Part shown: positions 12,502 through 22,562 of the stretch, piece after piece
Layout: the number at the start of each line of letters is the position of its first letter
Position numbering within the stretch: position 1 is the stretch's first letter
Assembly (NCBI GenBank): GCA_017635595.1
Contig: JAGBLF010000024.1
Location: forward strand, 4,441 to 68,440
Direction of reading: 5' to 3'
DNA: 64,000 nucleotides
Origin: Alphaproteobacteria bacterium
Lineage (GTDB): Bacteria > Pseudomonadota > Alphaproteobacteria > RF32 > CAG-239
Position numbers and translations under genes: made by a program
The notes under the pieces: generated by a model
The model's input: only the letters and a program-made list of their open reading frames with translations
What the model was told of the DNA's origin: nothing
Database searches by the model: none

Positions 12502-15500
12502 ATGAAATATTCTAAATCTGCTATAGGGCTCTTAACAGCGCAATATCGCAGTGTTTTAAAGAAGTGCTGGCTGATTAACGTCGGCTTGTTCGCTTTAGGC
12601 GCAGCAGCTGCCACACCGGCAAGCGCAGCCGATGCTGGAACATGGACAAAAGCTATAGAAGATACAGATGCATTTATGGACAACTTGGCTTCTACATCAG
12701 GTGGAGCTTGGGATCGTGCTAACGGCAATGTTACCGGCTGGGGTGTTGACCAGATTTTAGGTATTATGGGCGATACCGCAACCAAGACGGATGCCGCAGT
12801 TGCTCTAGTTAATGACACTACTAAAGGTAACGAAGCTCTTTATACTTCTTTGGATGGCAAGCAAGCTAAGTTAACTTCAACTTCAGGCAATGCCGGAAAT
12901 GGTATTTCAATTACAGATACTGGTGTTATTTCTGCTAAAGCCGGTAATACGACAATCACTGTTGATGGTGATGGTATTAAAGTCGGCACAATTGCTCAAA
13001 GCCAAGTTGATGGTTTAGCAACTTCTTTGGCTGGCAAACAAGCTCAGTTGACAAGTGGCTCAGACAATGTTTCCTCAGCTGTTTTGACATCTGTTAGAGA
13101 TTCGAGTTCAGCTGTTGATACTGCACTTGTTTCAGAAAAAGCTGTTGCAACCGCTATTGAAACTGCTACAACTGGTATGGTTACTACAGATGGTACTCAG
13201 ACATTAACCAACAAAACAATTGATGCTGACAGTAACACTATTTCTAACATCGAAACCGATAACTTCAAATCTGGCGTTATTCAAACAACTGTCAGAGCTA
13301 CTGCTTCTGCTTCAGATACTGCTCTTGCTTCTGAAAAAGCTGTTGCAACTGCCTTGGATGGCAAGCAAGCTAAGTTAACTTCAACTTCAGGCAATGCCGG
13401 AGATGGTATTTCAATTACAGATACCGGTGTTATTTCTGCTAAAGCCGGTGATACGACAATCACTGTTGATGGTAATGGTATTAAAGTCGGCACAATTGCT
13501 CAAAGCCAAGTTAATGGTTTATCAGATGCTTTGGATGCTAAAGTAAACAATGCCGATAACTTCACTGCTGCAACAGATTCTGATTTGATTAAAAATAAGA
13601 CTGTTGTTGCCGCTATCAAAGACACAGCTGCTGCTGTTGATGTTAATGCAACTAAAAACACCACTCAAGATACTTCTATAGGTAACTTGTACACTGCAGT
13701 AAACGGCGGTACTTATAATGCTGCTACCGGTGAAGTTACAGGTGCTAGCACATTATCTTCTAACTTTACAACTCCTAACTTAACCGCTGCCGCTAACGAA
13801 CTTTTGACAGACATTACTGTTACCTCGGCCGGCAATTACATTGCTGCCAATGCTAACGTTGCAAGTAACTTAAGTGCTTTGGACGGTCAAGTTAAGAACA
13901 ATACCGATAACATTACTTCTATGGCTGCTTTGGTTGGTACAACTTCGGCTCCGGCAGCAGGTACAGGTATTTTAGCAGGCAAGACCATTACAGGTACTGC
14001 CGGTACAAACAACCTGAATATGGTTGATGCTATTTCTTACGTTGCCGCTAATGGTGCCGGTCTAGGTACTAATAATGTTTATACAGGTACAAATACATAT
14101 GGTAGTACATCCGGTAGCCAAGTTATCATTGATAACGGCGGTAACTTAACAGCTAACACCAGTTTGAAAGTCGGTACATCTACAACCAATATGTTAACAG
14201 TCAGCTCAGCCGGAACAGTTATCGGTGCTGCTAATGCCATCACAGGTACAGCAGGTAGTTTGGATATGGGTGGTAACTCTCTGAGCAATGTTCATGGTTT
14301 AACATTGACGGACGGTACAGGCCACACCAACGATGCAACCATTTCTGTGGATGCTAACGGTATCAGTACCGGCAACAAGACTTTAGATGTCGGTACAGGT
14401 GCTTTGAAGTCTGAAACCTTGTACGTTGGTACAACCGATCAATTCTCGGTTAACGGTGCAGGTAATATCAGCACATCAGGTACGTTGGATGTTACAGGTA
14501 CAGCTACTGTCGGCTCACTTGCCATCGGTACAACCGGTAAAGGCTTTGATGCCAACGGCAACTTAACTGCAGGCACAATATCTGCTACCGGTATCGATAC
14601 AACAACCGCCAACACCGTTAACCTTGGCGGTACAGGCTTTACAACAGCCGTTACCGGTGGTTTGACAGTCAGCGGTGATACAGCATTGTCCGGTAAATTA
14701 AATGTAACCGGTGATACAACTTTAGCTAAAACCGATGTTACAGGTGACTTAACCGTTACCGGTAATACATCTTTGGCTAATACCAGTGTTGCCGGTACTT
14801 TGGATGTAACCGGTAAATCAACATTTGGTAGTGCAACCGGTAGCCGTATTGAACTTGATGGCGGTGCTTTAACCGTTAAAGATTCAACACAAGCTCAAGT
14901 TGCTAAAATCGATAATGACGGAAATGCAAGCTTTAACGGCACTTTAGATGTTGCCGGTTTGGCTTCGCTCGACGGCGGTATCAATGTTAACGATAAGTTC
15001 GCAGTTGACACCAACGGTAAAGTAACCTTGAGCGACGGTACAAATACAGCTACCATCGAAGCGACACAAATCAAAGATTCTGATGGTAACGACATAACCA
15101 ATGTTATGAAAGTTGACGGTACAGGATTGTACACCGGTTATGTTGCTTCCGAATCCGGCTTTACAGTAGCTCAAAAAGATGCTGTTACCGGTTTGTATGA
15201 AGAAACATTCACTGTAAATGAAGACGGCGATATCGAAACTTTAGGCACATTGTCTGTTTCTGACGGTAAATTCGCTGTTGATGGCGATGGTGCTGTCAGA
15301 GCTGCAAACGGTGAGTTTGTAGTTGATAAAGACGGTAATACCAAAATCAAAGGTGCATTAGGTGCCGGTGCTACCGGTACAGAATTCGCTGTCGGTACAA
15401 AAGGTAATATCAAAGCTGCTAATGGTAACTTCACTGTTGATAAGGACGGTAACACAACTGTTGCCGGTACAATGGATATCGAAGGCGATACAACAATCGG

Positions 15501-17073
15501 TAACAAATTTAGCGTAACTGCTGCTGACGGCTCATTCTCTGCTGCCGGCGGTAAATTCACCGTTGACAAAGATGGCGCTATCACTTCAAAGAGCTGGATG
15601 TCGGTTGCTGACGGTAACTTCAAAGTTAACTCTACCGGCGGTTTAACAACCACGAGCTGGATGTCGGTTGCTGACGGTAACTTCAAAGTTAACTCTACCG
15701 GCGGTTTAACAACCACGAGCTGGATGTCTGTTGCTGACGGTAAGATGACAGTTAACAGCGATGGTGCTATTAAAGCTGCTGATGGTAACTTCACGGTTGA
15801 TAAAGATGGTAATGTGACAGCTCAAGGTGACTTGGGTGTACAAGGTACATCTTGGTTGAAAGATACCAATGTTGACGGTGCTTTGTCCGTAACAGGTGAA
15901 TCTTGGTTGAAGAACACCCATGTTGACGGTGCTTTAGCTACAACCGGCGATGCATCTGTTGGCGGTAATTTTGCTGTTACAGGTTCTTCTTGGTTAAGCA
16001 ATACTCACGTTAACGGCGATTTGGAAGTTAGCGGAACAACAAAGACTGGTGCTTTGACCTTCGACGGTTCAAGCTATGTTGCCGCTATGGATCAAGGCGA
16101 TGCCGCTATTACTAACGGTGTTGTTGATGATCAGGCTAAACGTACTATGGCTACCGTTGCTACCGTTGCTAAAACAATCGGTAAATTAGACGACAAAAAT
16201 GCTCATGGCGTAACAGACGTTTCTGATGTTGCTTCGGCTATCTCTACATTGTCTCAAAACGTTGAAACAGCTACCGGTGGTACATTCACTGATGCGGTTT
16301 GGACCGGTGCCGTTGATGCCGATAAAGATGTTGACTATACATACAGCCCGGCTGCAACCGCAACAGCTACTGCCGGATACCATGACATTATGTCTGCCGT
16401 ATCTCAGGTTGCTTCTAACGTCGGTGCTGCAACAACCGTTGCTTTCAACAATGTTGCTGACGACAATACGGTTAATGCCAACATTGATGCATTAAACAGA
16501 AAAGTCGGTAATATGAACAACATCGGCTATGGTTACAAGAACCTGTCGAACGGTACAACAACTCAACCGGATACAGTGGTTGAAGCTTTGCTAAACATTG
16601 ATGCTTCTATGGGCACAATCCACGGCTTGGCTGACAAACTGGAAAAAGCTGGTACTTACCAAGGAAACTTGGCTGAAGGCACAACGGTTGAACAACACTT
16701 AACCGCTTTGGACAGCGCTATCGGTAACCGTGCTAACTTCAACAAGATGCACTATACACAAGGTTCTAAGACCGTTGTGGATGCTATCGGTAAATTGGAT
16801 ACTAAATTGAACAGTGTCGATCATGATGTTCGCACATTGCGTCATAAGTTCCAATCCGGTATGGCATCGGCTGCAGCTTTGTCTGCGTTAGTACCTAACG
16901 CCAGAGCTCATGGCAATACCCAACTTTCTGTTGGTACCGGTATGTACCATGGTCACGGCGCTATGGCCGTCGGTGGTTTCCACTGGTTCACGGATAATAT
17001 ACTCTTCAATACAGGTATTGCTTGGGATGATAACGAAGCAACTTACCGTATGGGTGTAACTTATTCTTGGTAA
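12502..17073 (+). CDS. Trimeric autotransporter adhesin (YadA-like C-terminal anchor), 1523 aa
   Basis: Extended signal peptide; G/T/A/D-rich repetitive passenger; coiled stalk followed by GMASAAALS...LSVGTGMYHGHGAMAVG...YRMGVTYSW anchor; SD aggag. Confidence 0.92.
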   Translation: MKYSKSAIGLLTAQYRSVLKKCWLINVGLFALGAAAATPASAADAGTWTKAIEDTDAFMDNLASTSGGAWDRANGNVTGWGVDQILGIMGDTATKTDAAVALVNDTTKGNEALYTSLDGKQAKLTSTSGNAGNGISITDTGVISAKAGNTTITVDGDGIKVGTIAQSQVDGLATSLAGKQAQLTSGSDNVSSAVLTSVRDSSSAVDTALVSEKAVATAIETATTGMVTTDGTQTLTNKTIDADSNTISNIETDNFKSGVIQTTVRATASASDTALASEKAVATALDGKQAKLTSTSGNAGDGISITDTGVISAKAGDTTITVDGNGIKVGTIAQSQVNGLSDALDAKVNNADNFTAATDSDLIKNKTVVAAIKDTAAAVDVNATKNTTQDTSIGNLYTAVNGGTYNAATGEVTGASTLSSNFTTPNLTAAANELLTDITVTSAGNYIAANANVASNLSALDGQVKNNTDNITSMAALVGTTSAPAAGTGILAGKTITGTAGTNNLNMVDAISYVAANGAGLGTNNVYTGTNTYGSTSGSQVIIDNGGNLTANTSLKVGTSTTNMLTVSSAGTVIGAANAITGTAGSLDMGGNSLSNVHGLTLTDGTGHTNDATISVDANGISTGNKTLDVGTGALKSETLYVGTTDQFSVNGAGNISTSGTLDVTGTATVGSLAIGTTGKGFDANGNLTAGTISATGIDTTTANTVNLGGTGFTTAVTGGLTVSGDTALSGKLNVTGDTTLAKTDVTGDLTVTGNTSLANTSVAGTLDVTGKSTFGSATGSRIELDGGALTVKDSTQAQVAKIDNDGNASFNGTLDVAGLASLDGGINVNDKFAVDTNGKVTLSDGTNTATIEATQIKDSDGNDITNVMKVDGTGLYTGYVASESGFTVAQKDAVTGLYEETFTVNEDGDIETLGTLSVSDGKFAVDGDGAVRAANGEFVVDKDGNTKIKGALGAGATGTEFAVGTKGNIKAANGNFTVDKDGNTTVAGTMDIEGDTTIGNKFSVTAADGSFSAAGGKFTVDKDGAITSKSWMSVADGNFKVNSTGGLTTTSWMSVADGNFKVNSTGGLTTTSWMSVADGKMTVNSDGAIKAADGNFTVDKDGNVTAQGDLGVQGTSWLKDTNVDGALSVTGESWLKNTHVDGALATTGDASVGGNFAVTGSSWLSNTHVNGDLEVSGTTKTGALTFDGSSYVAAMDQGDAAITNGVVDDQAKRTMATVATVAKTIGKLDDKNAHGVTDVSDVASAISTLSQNVETATGGTFTDAVWTGAVDADKDVDYTYSPAATATATAGYHDIMSAVSQVASNVGAATTVAFNNVADDNTVNANIDALNRKVGNMNNIGYGYKNLSNGTTTQPDTVVEALLNIDASMGTIHGLADKLEKAGTYQGNLAEGTTVEQHLTALDSAIGNRANFNKMHYTQGSKTVVDAIGKLDTKLNSVDHDVRTLRHKFQSGMASAAALSALVPNARAHGNTQLSVGTGMYHGHGAMAVGGFHWFTDNILFNTGIAWDDNEATYRMGVTYSW
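12850..13522 (+). repeat. Near-identical ~170-bp direct repeats (12850-13018 and 13354-13522) inside the adhesin
   Basis: LDGKQAKLTSTSGNAG(N/D)GISITDTGVISAKAG...VGTIAQSQV duplicated 504 bp apart. Confidence 0.92.
15591..15743 (+). repeat. 63-bp tandem repeat (two identical copies plus a partial) in the adhesin
   Basis: SWMSVADGNFKVNSTGGLTTT twice, then SWMSVADG. Confidence 0.93.
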
Positions 17074-17798: not shown

Positions 17799-17829
17799 CT
17801 ATATCCCTTCCCATTTTTTTAATATATAT

Positions 17830-17959
17830 GAGCTGCCGAAGCCGTAGTTGTTTTCAGGGCTACCCCAAAGTTGGTACCGACTTGCGGATAGTTTTCCGTT
17901 ATGCCTTGATTATTGTAGTTCTGTATGAGTTGATTTTCACGTTCTGCCCGTGCCGTTTG
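17830..17959 (-). pseudogene. Frameshifted remnant of the conserved N-terminal region of 21153..22373 (repeat copy C)
   Basis: Near-identical to 22129-22259 (QTARAERENQLIQNYNNQGITENYPQ...ENNYGFGSS) with a 1-bp deletion and no C-terminal module. Confidence 0.9.
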
Positions 17960-18036
17960 TTAAAATCGGTCGAACGGTAAAATATCGTCTGGAAGACTTG
18001 CAGGCATATGTTTCCGATAACCGTAAAAGCTAAAAC

Positions 18037-18060
18037 AAAGGGAGCATTAATGCTCCCTTT
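18037..18060 (-). terminator. Terminator after the 18071..18646 membrane protein
   Basis: Perfect palindrome aaagggagcattaatgctcccttt. Confidence 0.85.
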
Positions 18061-18070
18061 CTCAATAAAA

Positions 18071-18646
18071 CTACATGATTTCGCGTGTCATTGCTAAGAA
18101 TACCAGTCCGACATAAATCAGCAACATTCCGAAGAATGTCCATATAACTGCACGATTACCTAATAGATAAGTTCCCCCTGCCAACAGAATAATCGGTACA
18201 AAAAATAACAAAATGCCGGCAAAAGACGTATAGCCCATTGTCCAATTTAATGTTCCGTAATCCGTTGCGGTCAGCCACAACAAATATCCCCAGTTTAAGG
18301 CAAACCATGTGCCGACCTCTGCCATACGCCAACTTATCGTCGGATTAAATCCGACAATTTTCCGCCGAATATAATCATATAAGAGGTAGAGCTGAGTATA
18401 CAGAATATATCCGAATAAAAATTCAATTGTATAAACGCATGGATGTCCTCCCCATACCCATTGATATATTTTCCCTTCTTGCCACAAGTAGGGGTCACAA
18501 CTGTCACCTTGTGTGTTTGTTCCTATCATCATCGGATAAAGTCCTACAACTGCCCACGTTATAAACGCAAACCATATTACGGTTAAACTATACCGAATTA
18601 TTTTTTCTTGTTTCCGAAAAAGAACTCCAACAGTTTTTGTTCCCAT
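18071..18646 (-). CDS. Multi-TM membrane protein, candidate immunity protein for the SLT-like module
   Basis: About 5 hydrophobic segments, Cys pair in a loop; SD aggag before ATG 18646; overlaps the upstream gene's 3' end by 49 bp. Confidence 0.6.
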   Translation of the reverse strand: MGTKTVGVLFRKQEKIIRYSLTVIWFAFITWAVVGLYPMMIGTNTQGDSCDPYLWQEGKIYQWVWGGHPCVYTIEFLFGYILYTQLYLLYDYIRRKIVGFNPTISWRMAEVGTWFALNWGYLLWLTATDYGTLNWTMGYTSFAGILLFFVPIILLAGGTYLLGNRAVIWTFFGMLLIYVGLVFLAMTREIM

Positions 18647-19365
18647 TGTTTTTCTCCTAACCAAGGCTTTGTTTCGTATGCAGTTTTTACCCTTGCACCG
18701 ACATCATTGATGTTATTTGCTCCAGTTTCGTTCCATAGTGTTCCAATTCTATCTGGTGTTGGGTTATTCAAAGAATTTTGCATTTGTTTCAAAACTTTTG
18801 TCCCTAATTCAATGTTCTGCTGAGGTATATAGGAATCATAATGTTTTCCGTTAAAATCGCCCCAAGTTTGACCTTGAATATTCATCGGCATTTGACTCCC
18901 TGATGCCCCAATTAAGTCTCCTAGATAATTGAAAACACCTTTATGTCCTGTGGCACCTTCGTTATACATAACCGCACGCACCAAATCCGGATCTATACTA
19001 TTTTGCATAGCATATTTTTCAATATCATTATTATGCTTATATACATAATATTTTCCTAACCAATTCATAGTATACCACGGCCATTCATAGTTAGCATTTT
19101 GACTATCTTGCATATATAAATTTAATTGTTGCCCATTCTTTAGTGCCTGTATACGTTGTGCTTCGGTTAAATAATTATCCCGCCAAGGTACCGGAGTAAC
19201 CTGTTCTGATTGATTATTCCACGGCGTTGAGGTTGTGTACCTCGGTGTTGCCGAAGTGCTCCATGGTGCTGGGGTTTGCGTTTGCAATCCCGATGTTGTG
19301 CCAAAGGAAGAACTTGCACCAAAGCTTGAGTCGCTCCCGAAACGTGCCATATGCCCGGCAATCAT
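18598..19365 (-). CDS. Lysozyme-fold / lytic transglycosylase (SLT)-like domain protein with a low-complexity linker; candidate toxin module
   Basis: IEKYAMQNSIDPDLVRAVMYNE (catalytic Glu helix), QMPMNI, PQQNIELGTKVLKQM; start uncertain (19365 or 19350; ORF open to 19458). Confidence 0.65.
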   Translation of the reverse strand: MIAGHMARFGSDSSFGASSSFGTTSGLQTQTPAPWSTSATPRYTTSTPWNNQSEQVTPVPWRDNYLTEAQRIQALKNGQQLNLYMQDSQNANYEWPWYTMNWLGKYYVYKHNNDIEKYAMQNSIDPDLVRAVMYNEGATGHKGVFNYLGDLIGASGSQMPMNIQGQTWGDFNGKHYDSYIPQQNIELGTKVLKQMQNSLNNPTPDRIGTLWNETGANNINDVGARVKTAYETKPWLGEKQWEQKLLEFFFGNKKK

Positions 19366-19409
19366 ATACCAAAGGTGAAACCTGATACCTTTAATATAAC
19401 CACTAGTAT

Positions 19410-20192
19410 TTAACGAGCCTTGTGTCTGGTATCGCAACTGCGAATATCTTCGAGCCAAATATTATTATTTTTAAGGCAATTTTCCTTCGTTATGGTGCAA
19501 GGTTTACCATCGCCACAATCATTGAAGGTAAAACCCTCTTTGCATATTCCTGTATCTATACAGCCATCTGTGTCATAAGGGTCAAAGTATAAAGAAATTA
19601 TATTGATACTCATACTTAAAATATATATTACAGTTACAATCCATGCGGTATAGTAAAACAAATTACTGATAATCAATTCAAAACACCGAATAGATTTATT
19701 TTTAAACAATTGCATAATTTTACATTGTTCTCTGATTTTTTTTAGAAAGAATACATAAACAAAAAAGGAATCAATGCATATTAACATAAATATGTTTCGG
19801 AGTGAGGAATTGAAATAAAGTAAGCATATTGATAACGCGACAATTATGCAAATAATTATTTTATCAAAATATGTCAGTTTATTCCACCAAACATTATGCT
19901 TTTTATTGTGCATAAAAATCTGGTAATCGCAATAACTTAAAACGCTCAAAAGCGCCACAAAACCTAAAGCTGAACACACAAACCAAATATCGCTATACCC
20001 AAACAAAAATGGCAACAATAAAATGACAGATATCGTCCCGAGAGCAATTGATAAAATATTACAATATTTCTGCTTATTGACACTCCAATGCAATGTCTGC
20101 ACTTGTTGATTGAAATAATGGCAAATACGCATATTACATAAAATAGCGCTAATCAGTACTAAAAATAAAAATACATATAATAAATTTATCAT
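19410..20192 (-). CDS. Multi-TM membrane protein with a Cys-rich C-terminal tail, candidate immunity protein
   Basis: About 6 TMs, very AT-rich, ends DGCIDTGICKEG...CTITKENC...SC; SD gagg; directly downstream of the SAA-like module. Confidence 0.6.
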   Translation of the reverse strand: MINLLYVFLFLVLISAILCNMRICHYFNQQVQTLHWSVNKQKYCNILSIALGTISVILLLPFLFGYSDIWFVCSALGFVALLSVLSYCDYQIFMHNKKHNVWWNKLTYFDKIIICIIVALSICLLYFNSSLRNIFMLICIDSFFVYVFFLKKIREQCKIMQLFKNKSIRCFELIISNLFYYTAWIVTVIYILSMSINIISLYFDPYDTDGCIDTGICKEGFTFNDCGDGKPCTITKENCLKNNNIWLEDIRSCDTRHKAR

Positions 20193-20251: not shown

Positions 20252-20261
20252 GATTAAATAA

Positions 20262-20929
20262 TTATTTTTTATAATACCTAAACCGATCAAGTGGATCATA
20301 TCCTGCCGGACGATATTTATCGCAAGCCTCATAGGCGGAACGATATTGCCCGCTTTGTGCCATTTGTCGTCCGTCTGCATTTACTCGCATGTCATTACGA
20401 AAATCATCATTAGCCTGTTGGAAAGTTTTTCCTTTAAGAAGTACGTTTTTAGGATAGTCAATTAATTCTCTTCCTAAACCGATTGCCCCCGCTGTCGCCG
20501 AGCCCAAAGTTCCTCTTTGCGCTGCATCATAATTTCCGACACAATGATAGTAATTGTCAATGGTGGTACCTTGTTTTTGCATTTCCGGTGTACTTTTGTA
20601 GTTAGCATTTACCATGTTTATATAGTTTTCACCTAAATCTCTTGCTGCTCCAACAATCTGATTTGTAAAACTTTTATCAGATTGAGGTGTATCAGATGTA
20701 CGAACAAAACTTTCAATTGCGGAAGTAAAGGTATTTCTTTTATCGGCACGCAATTCTGGATAACCATATGCAGATTGAGTATTATTCTGTGTCTGCACCG
20801 GTTGTAGTGGTGTCGGTGTTGTATTCATTGCCGGATGATGACTTATCGCATCACTTATATTCGAGCTGCCGAAGCCGTAGTTATTTTCAGGGCTACCCCA
20901 AAAGTTTGTCCCGACTTGCGGGTAGTTTT
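20262..20929 (-). CDS. Orphan cassette: partial conserved N-terminal repeat fused in frame to a serum-amyloid-A-like C-terminal domain
   Basis: Frame is open upstream of Met 20828 (NYPQVGTNFWGSPENNYGFGSSNISDAISHHPAMNTTP); C-terminus GAARDL..NY...DNYYHCVGNYDAAQRG...DMRVNADGR...YRPAG. Confidence 0.75.
20813..20929 (-). repeat. Repeat copy B of the conserved N-terminal segment
   Basis: Near-identical to 22079-22195 (offset 1266 bp). Confidence 0.93.
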
Positions 20930-20974
20930 TATATAACCTAAAGTATATATTTTAAATATTTTTCAATTTATATA

Positions 20975-21007: not shown

Positions 21008-21140
21008 TACCTTAAGGTATTTCTCTCCAATAGGAACGAAAGATTTTAATCGCCTATTGTCGTATCTTGGATCGTGCTAGACTGTCGATTTAAGGATAGA
21101 GAAAAAGGAAGGAAGCTATTTTTAAGATAGCTTCCTTTTT
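21008..21140 (+). ncRNA. Putative ~130-nt structured small RNA
   Basis: Lies between promoter and terminator, no ORF; stems tttctct/agagaaa, caatagg/cctattg, tatcttggatcg/cgatttaaggata. Confidence 0.5.
21109..21140. terminator. Bidirectional Rho-independent terminator
   Basis: aaggaagctat / atagcttcctt stem flanked by A- and T-tracts. Confidence 0.85.
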
Positions 21141-21152
21141 AGTTTTTAATTA

Positions 21153-22373
21153 TTATTTAAAGTAATACATGGAAGCAACCGTTGAACCTTCTTCCACTGG
21201 AGATGTTACTAACCTTAATGTTCCGTCATAATTACGCACCAAATATACATTTTGCCCAAATTCATTTGATTCAAAAGGTTTTTGTTGAATAATCCTCGGT
21301 ATTTTTTGTGCATCTGCTCGCCCAATACGATGTCTGTATATAAATTTATCCAAGCCATAGTTCTGGACGCTACCGGTTTCTCGTCCTAATGACTTTCCAT
21401 GAACTATTACTTCTCCGTTTGGCCCCTTTATAGCCTCACCGCGTTGAAGAACGACCGGTTCGCCGTTATGATTTCTCATGCGCGCAATAACATCGCGGCC
21501 GTTACCTTGAAACGGATCTGCAGTTAATTTATCGTATGCTTTTCCGATTTTATAACCGTTATAGGCCATATTTGCCTGATTATAGCCGGCATTTGCCAGT
21601 GCACCTCCAGTTAAAGCACTGCCACCATAACCGGCTATTTGACCTGCTGTCTGTGCCAAATTGCGACTTTGCGCATCTTTTAACTGCAAATAATCATTCA
21701 TTTGTGAATCAAACCCGAGTTTGTTACCCAACCAGTCCAATCCGCCAAAGGTCATCCCGTTAACAGTCCTGTTCATACCATAAAGAACATCCATAGCATT
21801 CATCAACATATCATTTTCAACGGCACGTCTCCGTTGTTGTGCCCAAACACCTGTTTGTGGCAAAGAAGCTGATGAAATCTTGTTTATGTCGTTCGGTGTT
21901 GTGTAATTTTGTTGATTAGTCAACGTATTGCTATAATCGTCGTTCCATGTAGGTGTATGACTGCCATCAAAGCTGTTACCTATACCGGACATAAAGCTAC
22001 CGGCAACATTTGCCTGTTCATAATTGTTTATGGCTCGCTGATAATCATCCGATGTCGCTGACATCTGCATAATCGGCATCGGCGTGGTATTCATTGCCGG
22101 ATGATGACTTATCGCATCACTTATATTCGAACTGCCGAAGCCGTAGTTGTTTTCAGGGTTACCCCAAAAGTTGGTAGTATATTGCGGATAGTTTTCCGTT
22201 ATGCCTTGATTATTGTAGTTCTGTATGAGTTGATTTTCACGTTCCGCCCGTGCTGTTTGATACTCTATCTCATCACGAAGCGAAAACTGACTATGGTCAA
22301 CCCCAAACGTATCTATTTTATTGTCCCCCGTTTCATAGCCTAACGGTGATTTATATTTTTTCCATATATCCAT
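21153..22373 (-). CDS. Full-length putative polymorphic toxin: conserved N-terminal domain, linker, Gly-rich helical region and BECR/PBECR-like nuclease C-terminus
   Basis: SD agaggag; part of the N-terminal region is repeated twice downstream; GMTFGGLD...AGYGGSALTGG segment; C-terminal VVLQRG...YGLDKFIYRH...IPRIIQQ...VASMY. Confidence 0.65.
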   Translation of the reverse strand: MDIWKKYKSPLGYETGDNKIDTFGVDHSQFSLRDEIEYQTARAERENQLIQNYNNQGITENYPQYTTNFWGNPENNYGFGSSNISDAISHHPAMNTTPMPIMQMSATSDDYQRAINNYEQANVAGSFMSGIGNSFDGSHTPTWNDDYSNTLTNQQNYTTPNDINKISSASLPQTGVWAQQRRRAVENDMLMNAMDVLYGMNRTVNGMTFGGLDWLGNKLGFDSQMNDYLQLKDAQSRNLAQTAGQIAGYGGSALTGGALANAGYNQANMAYNGYKIGKAYDKLTADPFQGNGRDVIARMRNHNGEPVVLQRGEAIKGPNGEVIVHGKSLGRETGSVQNYGLDKFIYRHRIGRADAQKIPRIIQQKPFESNEFGQNVYLVRNYDGTLRLVTSPVEEGSTVASMYYFK

Positions 22374-22533: not shown

Positions 22534-22562
22534 ATGTTATGATTTAAAATAATAATTGTCAA
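22534..22562 (-). promoter_or_regulatory. Putative sigma70 promoter for the cassette locus
   Basis: TTGACA-17 bp-TAACAT on the minus strand. Confidence 0.6.

Follow-up and report, generated by a model that had tools for sequence, protein, structure and literature searches.

The window analysed here is a 64,000-nucleotide stretch of contig JAGBLF010000024.1 (positions 4,441 to 68,440, forward strand) from the assembly GCA_017635595.1 of an Alphaproteobacteria bacterium of the GTDB lineage RF32; CAG-239. On its minus strand, at 20262..20828, lies an open reading frame (ORF) of 188 amino acids, exactly where a preliminary description of the sequence had placed a protein resembling serum amyloid A (SAA). 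We consider that this ORF is probably a stored toxin cassette of the bacterial SAA (prok-SAA) kind, part of a polymorphic toxin family and accompanied by a membrane immunity partner, and we propose that its product attacks lipid head groups in the periplasm. The locus and its relatives display the traits by which polymorphic toxins are recognized, namely a conserved N-terminus followed by variable tips, a downstream partner that co-varies with the tip, and orphan cassettes that retain homology to full-length genes.

Identification of an SAA-family domain

A HMMER search of the ORF against Pfam matched the SAA family (PF00277) at 48.9 bits (E-value 9.6e-13; the curated cut-off is 30.8) and aligned ORF residues 53–165 (20334..20672, minus strand) to profile positions 2–96 of 102. 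Similarly, phmmer retrieved eight SAA chains from the PDB sequences, with E-values from 3e-5 (7zh7) to 2.3e-3, the sole non-SAA row being a flagellin at E = 0.34 that we regard as noise. Five motif pairs with vertebrate SAA had been proposed by eye, and four of these were reproduced in the HMMER alignments (GAARDLGENY..NANY; DNYYHCVGNYDAAQRG; the G..A..I..RE helix; and DMRVNADGR opposite the animal ..ANEWGR), while the fifth, YRPAG, lies outside of the aligned stretch.

An AlphaFold2 model of the ORF, based on 18 sequences (mean predicted local distance difference test score, pLDDT, of 84.2; predicted template modelling score, pTM, of 0.80), places helices at residues 54–75, 90–103, 107–130, and 136–159, followed by a short fifth helix at 165–172, along with extra N-terminal (33–44) and C-terminal (179–187) helices. 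When this model was compared to the PDB using Foldseek, the top seven matches were all mouse SAA3 or human SAA1 (template modelling score by target 0.76–0.82, 29–32% identity, probability 1.00, E-values 0.03–0.05), one matched structure being SAA3 with retinol, and these were clearly separated from the next match (E-value 0.99, score 0.2). Taken together, the Pfam, phmmer, and predicted-fold evidence identifies a genuine SAA-family domain: its resemblance to SAA is real homology and not chance, and the modelled fold of the window ORF is the SAA four-helix bundle.

Predicted active site

Animal SAA and prok-SAA have been grouped in the SAA-Wnt clade of the Lipocone superfamily by Burroughs, Nicastro, and Aravind (eLife 2025, PMC12419801; all statements attributed to this study refer to the sections of its text covered here). 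The active site inferred in that study comprises a histidine in helix 2, a glutamate in helix 3, and an aspartate or equivalent residue in helix 4, where an sNxxGR motif marks the SAA-Wnt clade. Across our 18 aligned sequences, invariant residues (18/18) were found in helix 2 (H95), helix 3 (R120-E121 and D124), and helix 4 (D142, N145, D146, and N150). The expected conserved histidine of helix 2, glutamate of helix 3, and acidic residue near the end of helix 3 correspond to H95, E121, and D124, the window motif V149-N150-A-D-G153-R154 fits the sNxxGR of the clade, and the short fifth helix (165–172) predicted after the four-helix core matches the published description of SAA-Wnt proteins. The earlier suggestion that H, N, and D residues could form an active site is thus in line with these data, as H95, E121, D124, D146, and N150 are invariant and occupy the positions proposed for the Lipocone active site (PMC12419801).

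According to the same computational study, prok-SAA domains have been recruited as tips of polymorphic toxins, animal SAA derives from such bacterial toxins, and the toxins are predicted, by argument from TelC, to attack lipid head groups attached through phosphate, either in the periplasm or in the membrane (PMC12419801). Cleavage of lipid head groups by the window SAA module would follow from this published inference by analogy, and such a mechanism is supported by the conservation of the residues listed above, the company that the module keeps, and a partner predicted to face the periplasm.

The variable C-terminal slot of a modular protein family

The window SAA module was found to occupy the variable C-terminal slot of a modular family with shared leaders and swapped tips, which agrees with its earlier placement in a toxin slot. 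Among 142 candidates, 23 proteins match the SAA ORF at E ≤ 0.001, 22 of them with a precomputed SAA hit. One of these (P0001) joins a so-called type-b leader to an SAA module 94% identical to that of the window, another (P0004) joins a full type-a leader to a module 84% identical, and other leaders precede SAA modules at lower identity, so that one and the same SAA module is found behind at least three unrelated N-terminal leaders. Type-a leaders start with M-D-I-W.. and include a conserved ..(V/I)D(T/S)(Y/F)GV(D/N)H..F..RDE.. stretch, whereas type-b leaders start with M-T-E-F-T-R-E-L-M-F-G-K-R-P... No signal peptide or hydrophobic N-terminus was observed in any leader of the full-length relatives. 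An SAA tip was also found on one Rhs protein (P0165).

A full type-a leader is encoded within the window itself, by a 406-amino-acid gene located upstream of the SAA ORF on the same strand (21153..22373). This protein consists of a type-a N-terminal module (approximately residues 1–105), a Gly-rich centre, and then the C-terminus; as a whole it had no Pfam, NCBIfam, or PHROG hit, and its tip had no family match. Its residues 1–110 find 413 proteins of 223–711 amino acids at E ≤ 0.001. Among the 120 of these that were listed, Pfam tips of five kinds occur in 45 proteins, i.e. SAA (14), Tlde1 (11, one also with YkuD), GH108 (12, four also with PG_binding_3), pesticin-type lysozyme (4), or a VgrG3-like C-terminus (4), and the remaining 75 are without a Pfam family, the Pfam names having been checked on ten examples. 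All of the recognised tips target peptidoglycan or work in the periplasm. The single PDB match of the type-a leader, a biased hit to a designed PPR repeat protein, was discarded, leaving 0 stretches passing.

Within the genome carrying the window (1.50 Mb, 32 contigs, 96.17% complete), 14 matches to the 406-amino-acid protein were detected on seven contigs, several of them at contig ends. One of these contigs (C31, L005/L006) carries the central Gly-rich ..AGQIAGYGGSALTGGAL.. stretch joined to another C-terminus, downstream of which lies an orphan C-terminus of the window type. This arrangement of central region and C-termini suggests a second level of module swapping within the 406-amino-acid protein.

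A membrane-anchored partner gene

The membrane protein encoded downstream of the SAA ORF (19410..20192, minus strand, 260 amino acids, with AGAGG 6 nucleotides 5′ of its ATG) had been noted in the preliminary description as a possible partner, and it is indeed a conserved one, lying directly 3′ of the SAA gene in all ten intact loci of the subfamily. These loci were derived from local HMM searches of eight public-genome loci and of the 30 loci of an order-level search, and include the window; six loci present in both sources were merged as duplicates because their ORF sizes and scores are identical. Across the ten, the partner was recovered by hmmsearch with E-values from 7.7e-132 to 7.9e-17, and a 260-amino-acid homologue directly follows the SAA gene in the eight related public-genome loci. 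In an eleventh locus (L027), only the 3′ part of an SAA gene is left, and the partner is missing.

The AlphaFold2 model of the partner (mean pLDDT 84.3) includes six predicted membrane helices (residues 2–33, 38–57, 68–95, 108–127, 131–155, and 166–203) followed by a Cys-rich C-terminal tail (residues 204–254, 19431..19583). This 55-residue tail region concentrates 20 of the 29 columns that are invariant among eight homologues, including six cysteines (C211, C217, C226, C232, C239, and C253). By the positive-inside rule, we infer that the three Lys/Arg-rich loops are cytoplasmic and that the tail is periplasmic, which agrees with a disulfide-bonded tail. No usable Foldseek match to the partner was obtained in the PDB or the protein atlas. 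A prediction of the complex between SAA residues 25–188 and partner tail residues 196–260 gave a score of 0.01 and a mark of 0.32, the partner's own fold being uncertain in that prediction, and thus does not weigh on binding in either direction.

Identities of toxin and partner to their window counterparts in eight pairs were 95/81, 93/76, 89/53, 93/54, 58/37, 53/42, 57/37, and 44/29%, respectively, indicating that the partner diverges faster than the toxin. The 260-amino-acid protein most likely protects against the SAA toxin.

More distant SAA subfamilies (21 loci, 36–46% identity) do not include a partner gene of the 260-amino-acid type. Instead, all 21 encode a small membrane-anchored ORF downstream, mostly with one predicted transmembrane segment and a Cys-rich domain, in which four cysteines are invariant across 15 aligned sequences. 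The corresponding four-Cys motif, which was chosen after seeing the data, is present in 21/21 of these loci vs 1/225 background ORFs. A four-cysteine domain is listed among the immunity proteins coupled to prok-SAA (PMC12419801), and the partners of the distant subfamilies fit this domain, whereas the window partner carries six cysteines on a body of six transmembrane segments. A C-x-D-x-G start shared by the two kinds of partner was considered as a sign of homology and dropped, the hhalign probability being 5%.

A second SAA ORF was found in the genome carrying the window (L002:1342-1764, G000:C29:62780-63202, minus strand). It encodes 140 amino acids with a very short leader, is divergent, and matches Pfam SAA at E = 3.7e-16; a 109-amino-acid membrane protein ending in a Cys-containing tail follows it.

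Distribution across genomes and samples

Related loci belong to uncultured Alphaproteobacteria, one of them a Rhodospirillales, from deer, yak, and other ruminant gut samples. The sequencing runs holding the stretch comprise 20 DNA rows from 11 studies, which are gut metagenomes where the organism is recorded, some of them from sheep or bovine; no RNA run was among those listed. Within the order, the SAA part alone (E ≤ 1e-5) was detected in 86 of the 201 sampled genomes and in 16 of 22 genera; the higher figure of 116/201 obtained with a longer profile of the SAA protein was rejected as an SAA count because that profile includes leader columns. From a library of 1.84 billion proteins, the profile retrieved 563 representatives at E ≤ 0.001, among them the Rhs protein P0165, with 142 at 1e-10 and 16 at 1e-30.

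An alternative is that the SAA protein is no enzyme toxin but serves the bacteria in their interaction with the ruminant host, either by binding lipid or retinol or by mimicking host SAA; host-protein mimicry had been raised in the preliminary description. The predicted fold is that of SAA1 and SAA3, including a structure of SAA3 with retinol, and these bacteria live in animal guts. However, identity to mammalian SAA is only 29–32%, so the domain was not recently captured from the host, and the protein has no signal peptide. Its leaders are common to peptidoglycan hydrolases, it is always paired with a fast-evolving membrane partner, and polar residues occupy the predicted catalytic positions without variation. 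We thus find no support for host mimicry, given this low identity, the presence of the domain in 86/201 genomes, and the membrane-anchored partner adjacent to each examined copy, and we judge a host-directed binding role to be highly improbable. The combination of SAA with an adjacent membrane-anchored partner across the order is the signature of bacterial toxin–immunity pairs.

An orphan cassette behind a full-length gene

The preliminary description had treated the SAA ORF as the C-terminus of a cassette. The term cassette holds, as the frame remains open for 41 codons 5′ of the ATG (from approximately position 20950) and copies approximately residues 60–100 of the 406-amino-acid ORF, but the orphan state of this cassette, which has no leader, ribosome-binding site, or evident promoter of its own, had been missed. 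The 41 upstream codons include no start codon, and the cassette lacks the first ~57 residues of the family N-terminal module. The copied stretch forms a 117-nucleotide homology block (20813..20929, minus strand, encoding ..NYPQVGTNFWGSPENNYGFGSSNISDAISHHPAMNTTP.., and likewise without its own start codon) that is 89% identical to positions 22079–22195 within the 406-amino-acid gene and likely represents a recombination handle, with the 406-amino-acid gene as the donor of the block.

Reading of the sequence revealed no Shine-Dalgarno-like motif 5′ of the SAA ATG, whereas AGAGG precedes the ATG of the 260-amino-acid gene, and a terminator-like hairpin with a T-rich tail (21109..21137, 11 pairs, loop of 7) stands between the stop codon of the 406-amino-acid gene and the cassette. 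Because of this missing Shine-Dalgarno and its position behind the terminator, the cassette has neither a ribosome-binding site nor an evident promoter. Hence, ORF 20262..20828 is a 5′-truncated orphan toxin cassette, i.e. a stored module, which in its present state is probably silent, and its immunity gene is probably expressed. Additional 5′-truncated fragments of the family were found on contigs C2, C7, and C31 of the same genome.

These same features could also indicate a dead remnant that is never used, with only the immunity gene mattering, as protection against neighbours. The leader fragment without a start codon, the absence of a Shine-Dalgarno, and the upstream terminator are all compatible with decay, another homology block in the window (17823–17962) has clearly decayed, and the relative L027 holds a truncated SAA remnant. 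Against this, the 188-amino-acid frame is intact and retains every invariant residue, the module is 93–95% identical to modules found in full-length genes, and the 117-nucleotide handle is 89% identical to the main gene. A stored, still usable cassette therefore remains our preferred reading, and we regard a dead remnant as rather doubtful.

Metagenome contigs from four runs were compared with the locus; these are short and broken at repeats, so that uncovered parts are uninformative, and none of these short contigs joins the homology block of the main gene to that of the cassette. One contig (X3) joins position 19343 to position 20788, skipping the SAA module and its partner (1444 nucleotides; side 44; depth 4.6). 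It may come from a strain variant without the SAA cassette or from another organism, and we draw nothing from it because the two frames do not meet in phase. In one related locus (L018:7683-8556, identical to L029), two overlapping ORFs (222 and 115 amino acids) stand in place of a single SAA gene, reflecting either a frameshift or an assembly error, and an intact 281-amino-acid version (P0010) exists elsewhere.

Candidate delivery routes

None of the 201 sampled genomes of the order yielded the type VI sheath gene TssC, and neither MuF, FlhA, a TonB C-terminal domain, nor a TonB-dependent receptor plug was found in the genome carrying the window (96% complete). Type VI secretion, MuF packaging, and flagellar export were hence rejected as routes on the basis of TssC, MuF, and FlhA, respectively. 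A genome in which TonB_C, Plug, FlhA, and TssC are all undetected has a pared-down envelope for a Gram-negative gut bacterium. VirB4, on the other hand, was detected once each in 196 of the 201 genomes. The genome carrying the window encodes VirB2, VirB3, and VirB4 beside a type IVb pilus cluster (TcpQ, secretin, PilO, and an ATPase), along with VirD4 and a VirB10 (TrbI) domain within a 1405-amino-acid ORF (1409-amino-acid open frame) that adjoins a 1641-amino-acid ORF. Next to the VirB10 ORF there is also a gene that looks VirB11-like, as judged by eye from its N-terminus. These type IV genes are scattered over the genome (L055, G000:C7:55762-65885; L020, G000:C13:88000-102663).

Because VirB4 is near-universal in the order and TssC, MuF, FlhA, TonB, and plug domains were not found, a core VirB/D4 type IV system is the leading export candidate. 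In Xanthomonadales, effectors of the X-T4SS (a type IV secretion system) are small proteins exported by VirB/D4 that target lipid II or peptidoglycan in the periplasm and are countered by periplasm-facing immunity proteins. These effectors carry a C-terminal recognition domain, whereas the conserved module of the window family is N-terminal, which weighs against the type IV candidate. More speculatively, the short leaders (types a, b, and c) of this order of small-genome gut alphaproteobacteria might constitute an undescribed delivery class for periplasm-acting antibacterial effectors, in which the scattered core VirB/D4 genes and the giant VirB10-like protein would form a bacteria-killing machine reading N-terminal signals and the SAA cassette would be a warhead of the lipid II type; we put this forward only tentatively.

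Alternatively, the family could consist of diffusible bacteriocins of the colicin M or pesticin type, released by lysis or leakage rather than through a secretion machine, whose disordered Gly/Asn/Tyr-rich leader would bind an outer-membrane receptor and drive import into the periplasm of relatives. Such bacteriocins are likewise small and periplasm-acting on lipid II or peptidoglycan; colicin M cleaves lipid II, and both it and pesticin have membrane-anchored periplasmic immunity proteins. Consistent with this, the family proteins are 230–430 amino acids long without a signal peptide, their recognised tips all act in the periplasm and include a pesticin-type lysozyme, and TolB is present in the genome, which would make a Tol-dependent entry possible. 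In addition, the most conserved leader motif, (V/I)D(T/S)(Y/F)GV at residues ~20–25, resembles the TonB-box consensus, D/E-T-x-x-V. However, the genome carrying the window (96% complete) yielded no TonB C-terminal domain and no plug of a TonB-dependent receptor, and a TonB-box route into kin would thus be without visible machinery, so that the TonB-box reading of D(T/S)(Y/F)GV was marked down. No lysis gene is seen in the locus, and arrays of orphan cassettes are a typical trait of contact-dependent polymorphic toxins, which also counts against diffusible bacteriocins. Overall, we see this alternative as unlikely, yet the most serious of those considered.

Delivery by phage was also considered, in which case the family proteins would be virion proteins or cargo of phages or phage-like particles that bring them into the target periplasm. 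In the genome carrying the window, a type-b protein with a Tlde1 tip and a small membrane protein directly follow the virion module of a prophage (L054). Yet the window locus is flanked by an adhesin/OmpH-like gene on one side and housekeeping genes on the other, without an adjacent phage gene, no phage module is evident by eye in the flanks of the related loci L012 and L013, the leaders have no PHROG match, MuF is not found in the genome, and the virion protein has no significant similarity to the leader of an SAA protein with which it was compared. Carriage by phage is therefore improbable in our assessment. The prophage itself (L054, G000:C10:1-16000) includes a terminase, a major head protein, a tail protein, an amidase-annotated PHROG match, and a virion structural protein, and is followed by the type-b protein with the Tlde1 tip, a membrane protein of 114 amino acids, and the first part of a type-a gene, where the contig ends.

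Proposed mode of action and points against it

Under our preferred reading of the ORF as a stored prok-SAA toxin cassette, recombination at the 117-nucleotide handle would join the cassette to a full N-terminal leader, and the leader-joined protein would then be exported and enter the periplasm of a competing relative. In that compartment, its cone-like bundle of helices would take up a lipid tail, and the His/Glu/Asn site may cut or swap the phosphate-linked head group. As for TelC, the most likely substrate would be the undecaprenyl-pyrophosphate linkage in lipid II or in a comparable carrier lipid. The partner would shield the producer and its kin, presumably by using its disulfide-bonded tail to retain the toxin on the outer surface of the inner membrane.

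Several observations weigh against this reading. The Foldseek E-values of the SAA model are 0.03–0.05, none reaching 0.001, and within the sNxxGR motif only the N is invariant in the subfamily (18/18), with G and R varying. The mechanism put forward for prok-SAA rests on TelC, PTDSS, and conserved residues, and the covered sections of PMC12419801 include no prok-SAA assay. Comparison of the window partner to the four-Cys family with hhalign yielded 5% probability over 13 columns. The leaders match no known secretion or trafficking domain in Pfam, NCBIfam, PHROGs, or PDB sequences, and some SAA proteins of the order have only ~30–40 leader residues, so a long leader is not always needed. The 406-amino-acid gene, which would be the recipient of the cassette, has no adjacent immunity gene. 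Finally, the type IV link is one of co-occurrence only, and VirB4 does not discriminate because it is near-universal in the order.

Organization of the array and neighbouring genes

The features described above form part of a small array of genes on the minus strand of the window, from 22373 to 17823. A promoter-like site (TTGACA, 17 nucleotides, TAACAT; 10/12) is located 5′ of the 406-amino-acid gene at 22534..22562, and another (9/12) at 20261..20290, within the 3′ end of the SAA ORF and upstream of the partner gene. Both are consensus matches only, and since the promoter scan was uninformative (21 sites observed vs 21.5 expected in shuffles), we treat these sites as mere positions. A 399-amino-acid paralogue of the 406-amino-acid type-a protein elsewhere in the genome (L004, G000:C2:83-1282) also has no adjacent immunity gene.

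Downstream of the 260-amino-acid gene, an ORF at 18598..19458 displays a weak match to a lytic transglycosylase (SLT) domain (Pfam E = 3.3e-4, 20.6 bits, just below the cut-off of 21.3), with a true start probably at an internal ATG near 19365 or 19350. It is followed by a multi-pass membrane protein of 197 amino acids (18071..18664) that reached no family at curated cut-off in Pfam or NCBIfam and is a possible immunity partner of the SLT-like module. Together, these two ORFs (18071–19458) resemble a second effector/immunity cassette, and the N-terminal Ser/Gly/Phe-rich stretch of the SLT-like ORF is not clearly related to the type-a leader. The hairpin scan placed a terminator-like hairpin closing the array at 18037..18060. 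Beyond it lies the decayed third copy of the N-terminal homology block (17823..17962), whose segment 17863–17962 is 91% identical to 22163–22262, with one base missing and nothing after it.

A 1523-amino-acid ORF at 12502–17073 lies just upstream of the array, with a signal-peptide-like start and long, internally repeated Thr/Gly/Asn-rich stretches. By eye only, its C-terminus is typical of trimeric autotransporter adhesins.

Relation to known systems and significance

The window protein shares its Pfam family, its predicted fold, and the motifs of helices 1–4 with vertebrate SAA (human SAA1 and mouse SAA3; PDB 4ip8, 4q5g, and 6py0), and differs by a 10-residue insert between helices 1 and 2 and by its extra N- and C-terminal helices. 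Vertebrate acute-phase SAA is a protein of ~104 amino acids with a signal peptide and serves as an apolipoprotein of high-density lipoprotein (HDL), whereas the window family has no signal peptide, places the domain in a toxin slot, and pairs it with an immunity partner. Orphan cassettes of the Rhs, CdiA-CT, and MafB systems consist of a 5′-truncated toxin with its immunity gene downstream of a full-length gene, with a short shared homology that allows the tip to be replaced. The window locus is alike in its truncated toxin module, its immunity gene, and its homology to the full-length gene, but the parent proteins are here of 230–430 amino acids only, without an Rhs/YD shell, haemagglutinin repeats, a signal peptide, or a known secretion domain.

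The closest resemblance is to the prok-SAA proteins of PMC12419801, with which the window protein shares the SAA helical bundle with its short fifth helix, the His/Glu/sNxxGR residues, the position at a variable C-terminal tip, a neighbouring immunity gene with a membrane-anchored product, and a site of action predicted to lie outside of the cytoplasm. The delivery hallmarks given there for Lipocone toxins in general include PAAR, WXG/LXG, VirD4-binding, T9SS, and MuF, and the prok-SAA fusions described include those with Zincin/vWD and “broken-hairpin” domains; the covered sections do not mention short N-terminal leaders or a six-Cys partner with six transmembrane segments, both of which its source data may list. 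TelC and its immunity protein TipC, from Streptococcus intermedius, offer a second point of comparison within the same superfamily, as TelC acts outside of the cytoplasm only, cutting lipid II between undecaprenol and pyrophosphate, and TipC acts at the outer face of the membrane (PMC12419801). TelC, however, belongs to the TelC clade and not to SAA-Wnt, and is a substrate of type VII secretion with an LXG domain, found in Gram-positive bacteria (PMC12419801); TipC is unrelated to the window partner. Because PMC12419801 covers prok-SAA toxin tips, the window locus is a member of a described kind: it is a clean new example of the prok-SAA toxins described in 2025, and not a new class.

SAA is one of the major acute-phase proteins in humans, and what it does at the molecular level is still under debate. 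The locus provides a compact pair for a direct test, made of a 164-residue module and a 260-residue partner with H95, E121, and N150 as catalytic candidates. Should toxicity or activity be observed, it would be the first biochemical activity for the SAA branch, with a bearing on the effect of animal SAA on bacteria. Overall, the family that surrounds this cassette points to an unrecognised delivery of cell-wall toxins in abundant uncultured rumen bacteria.

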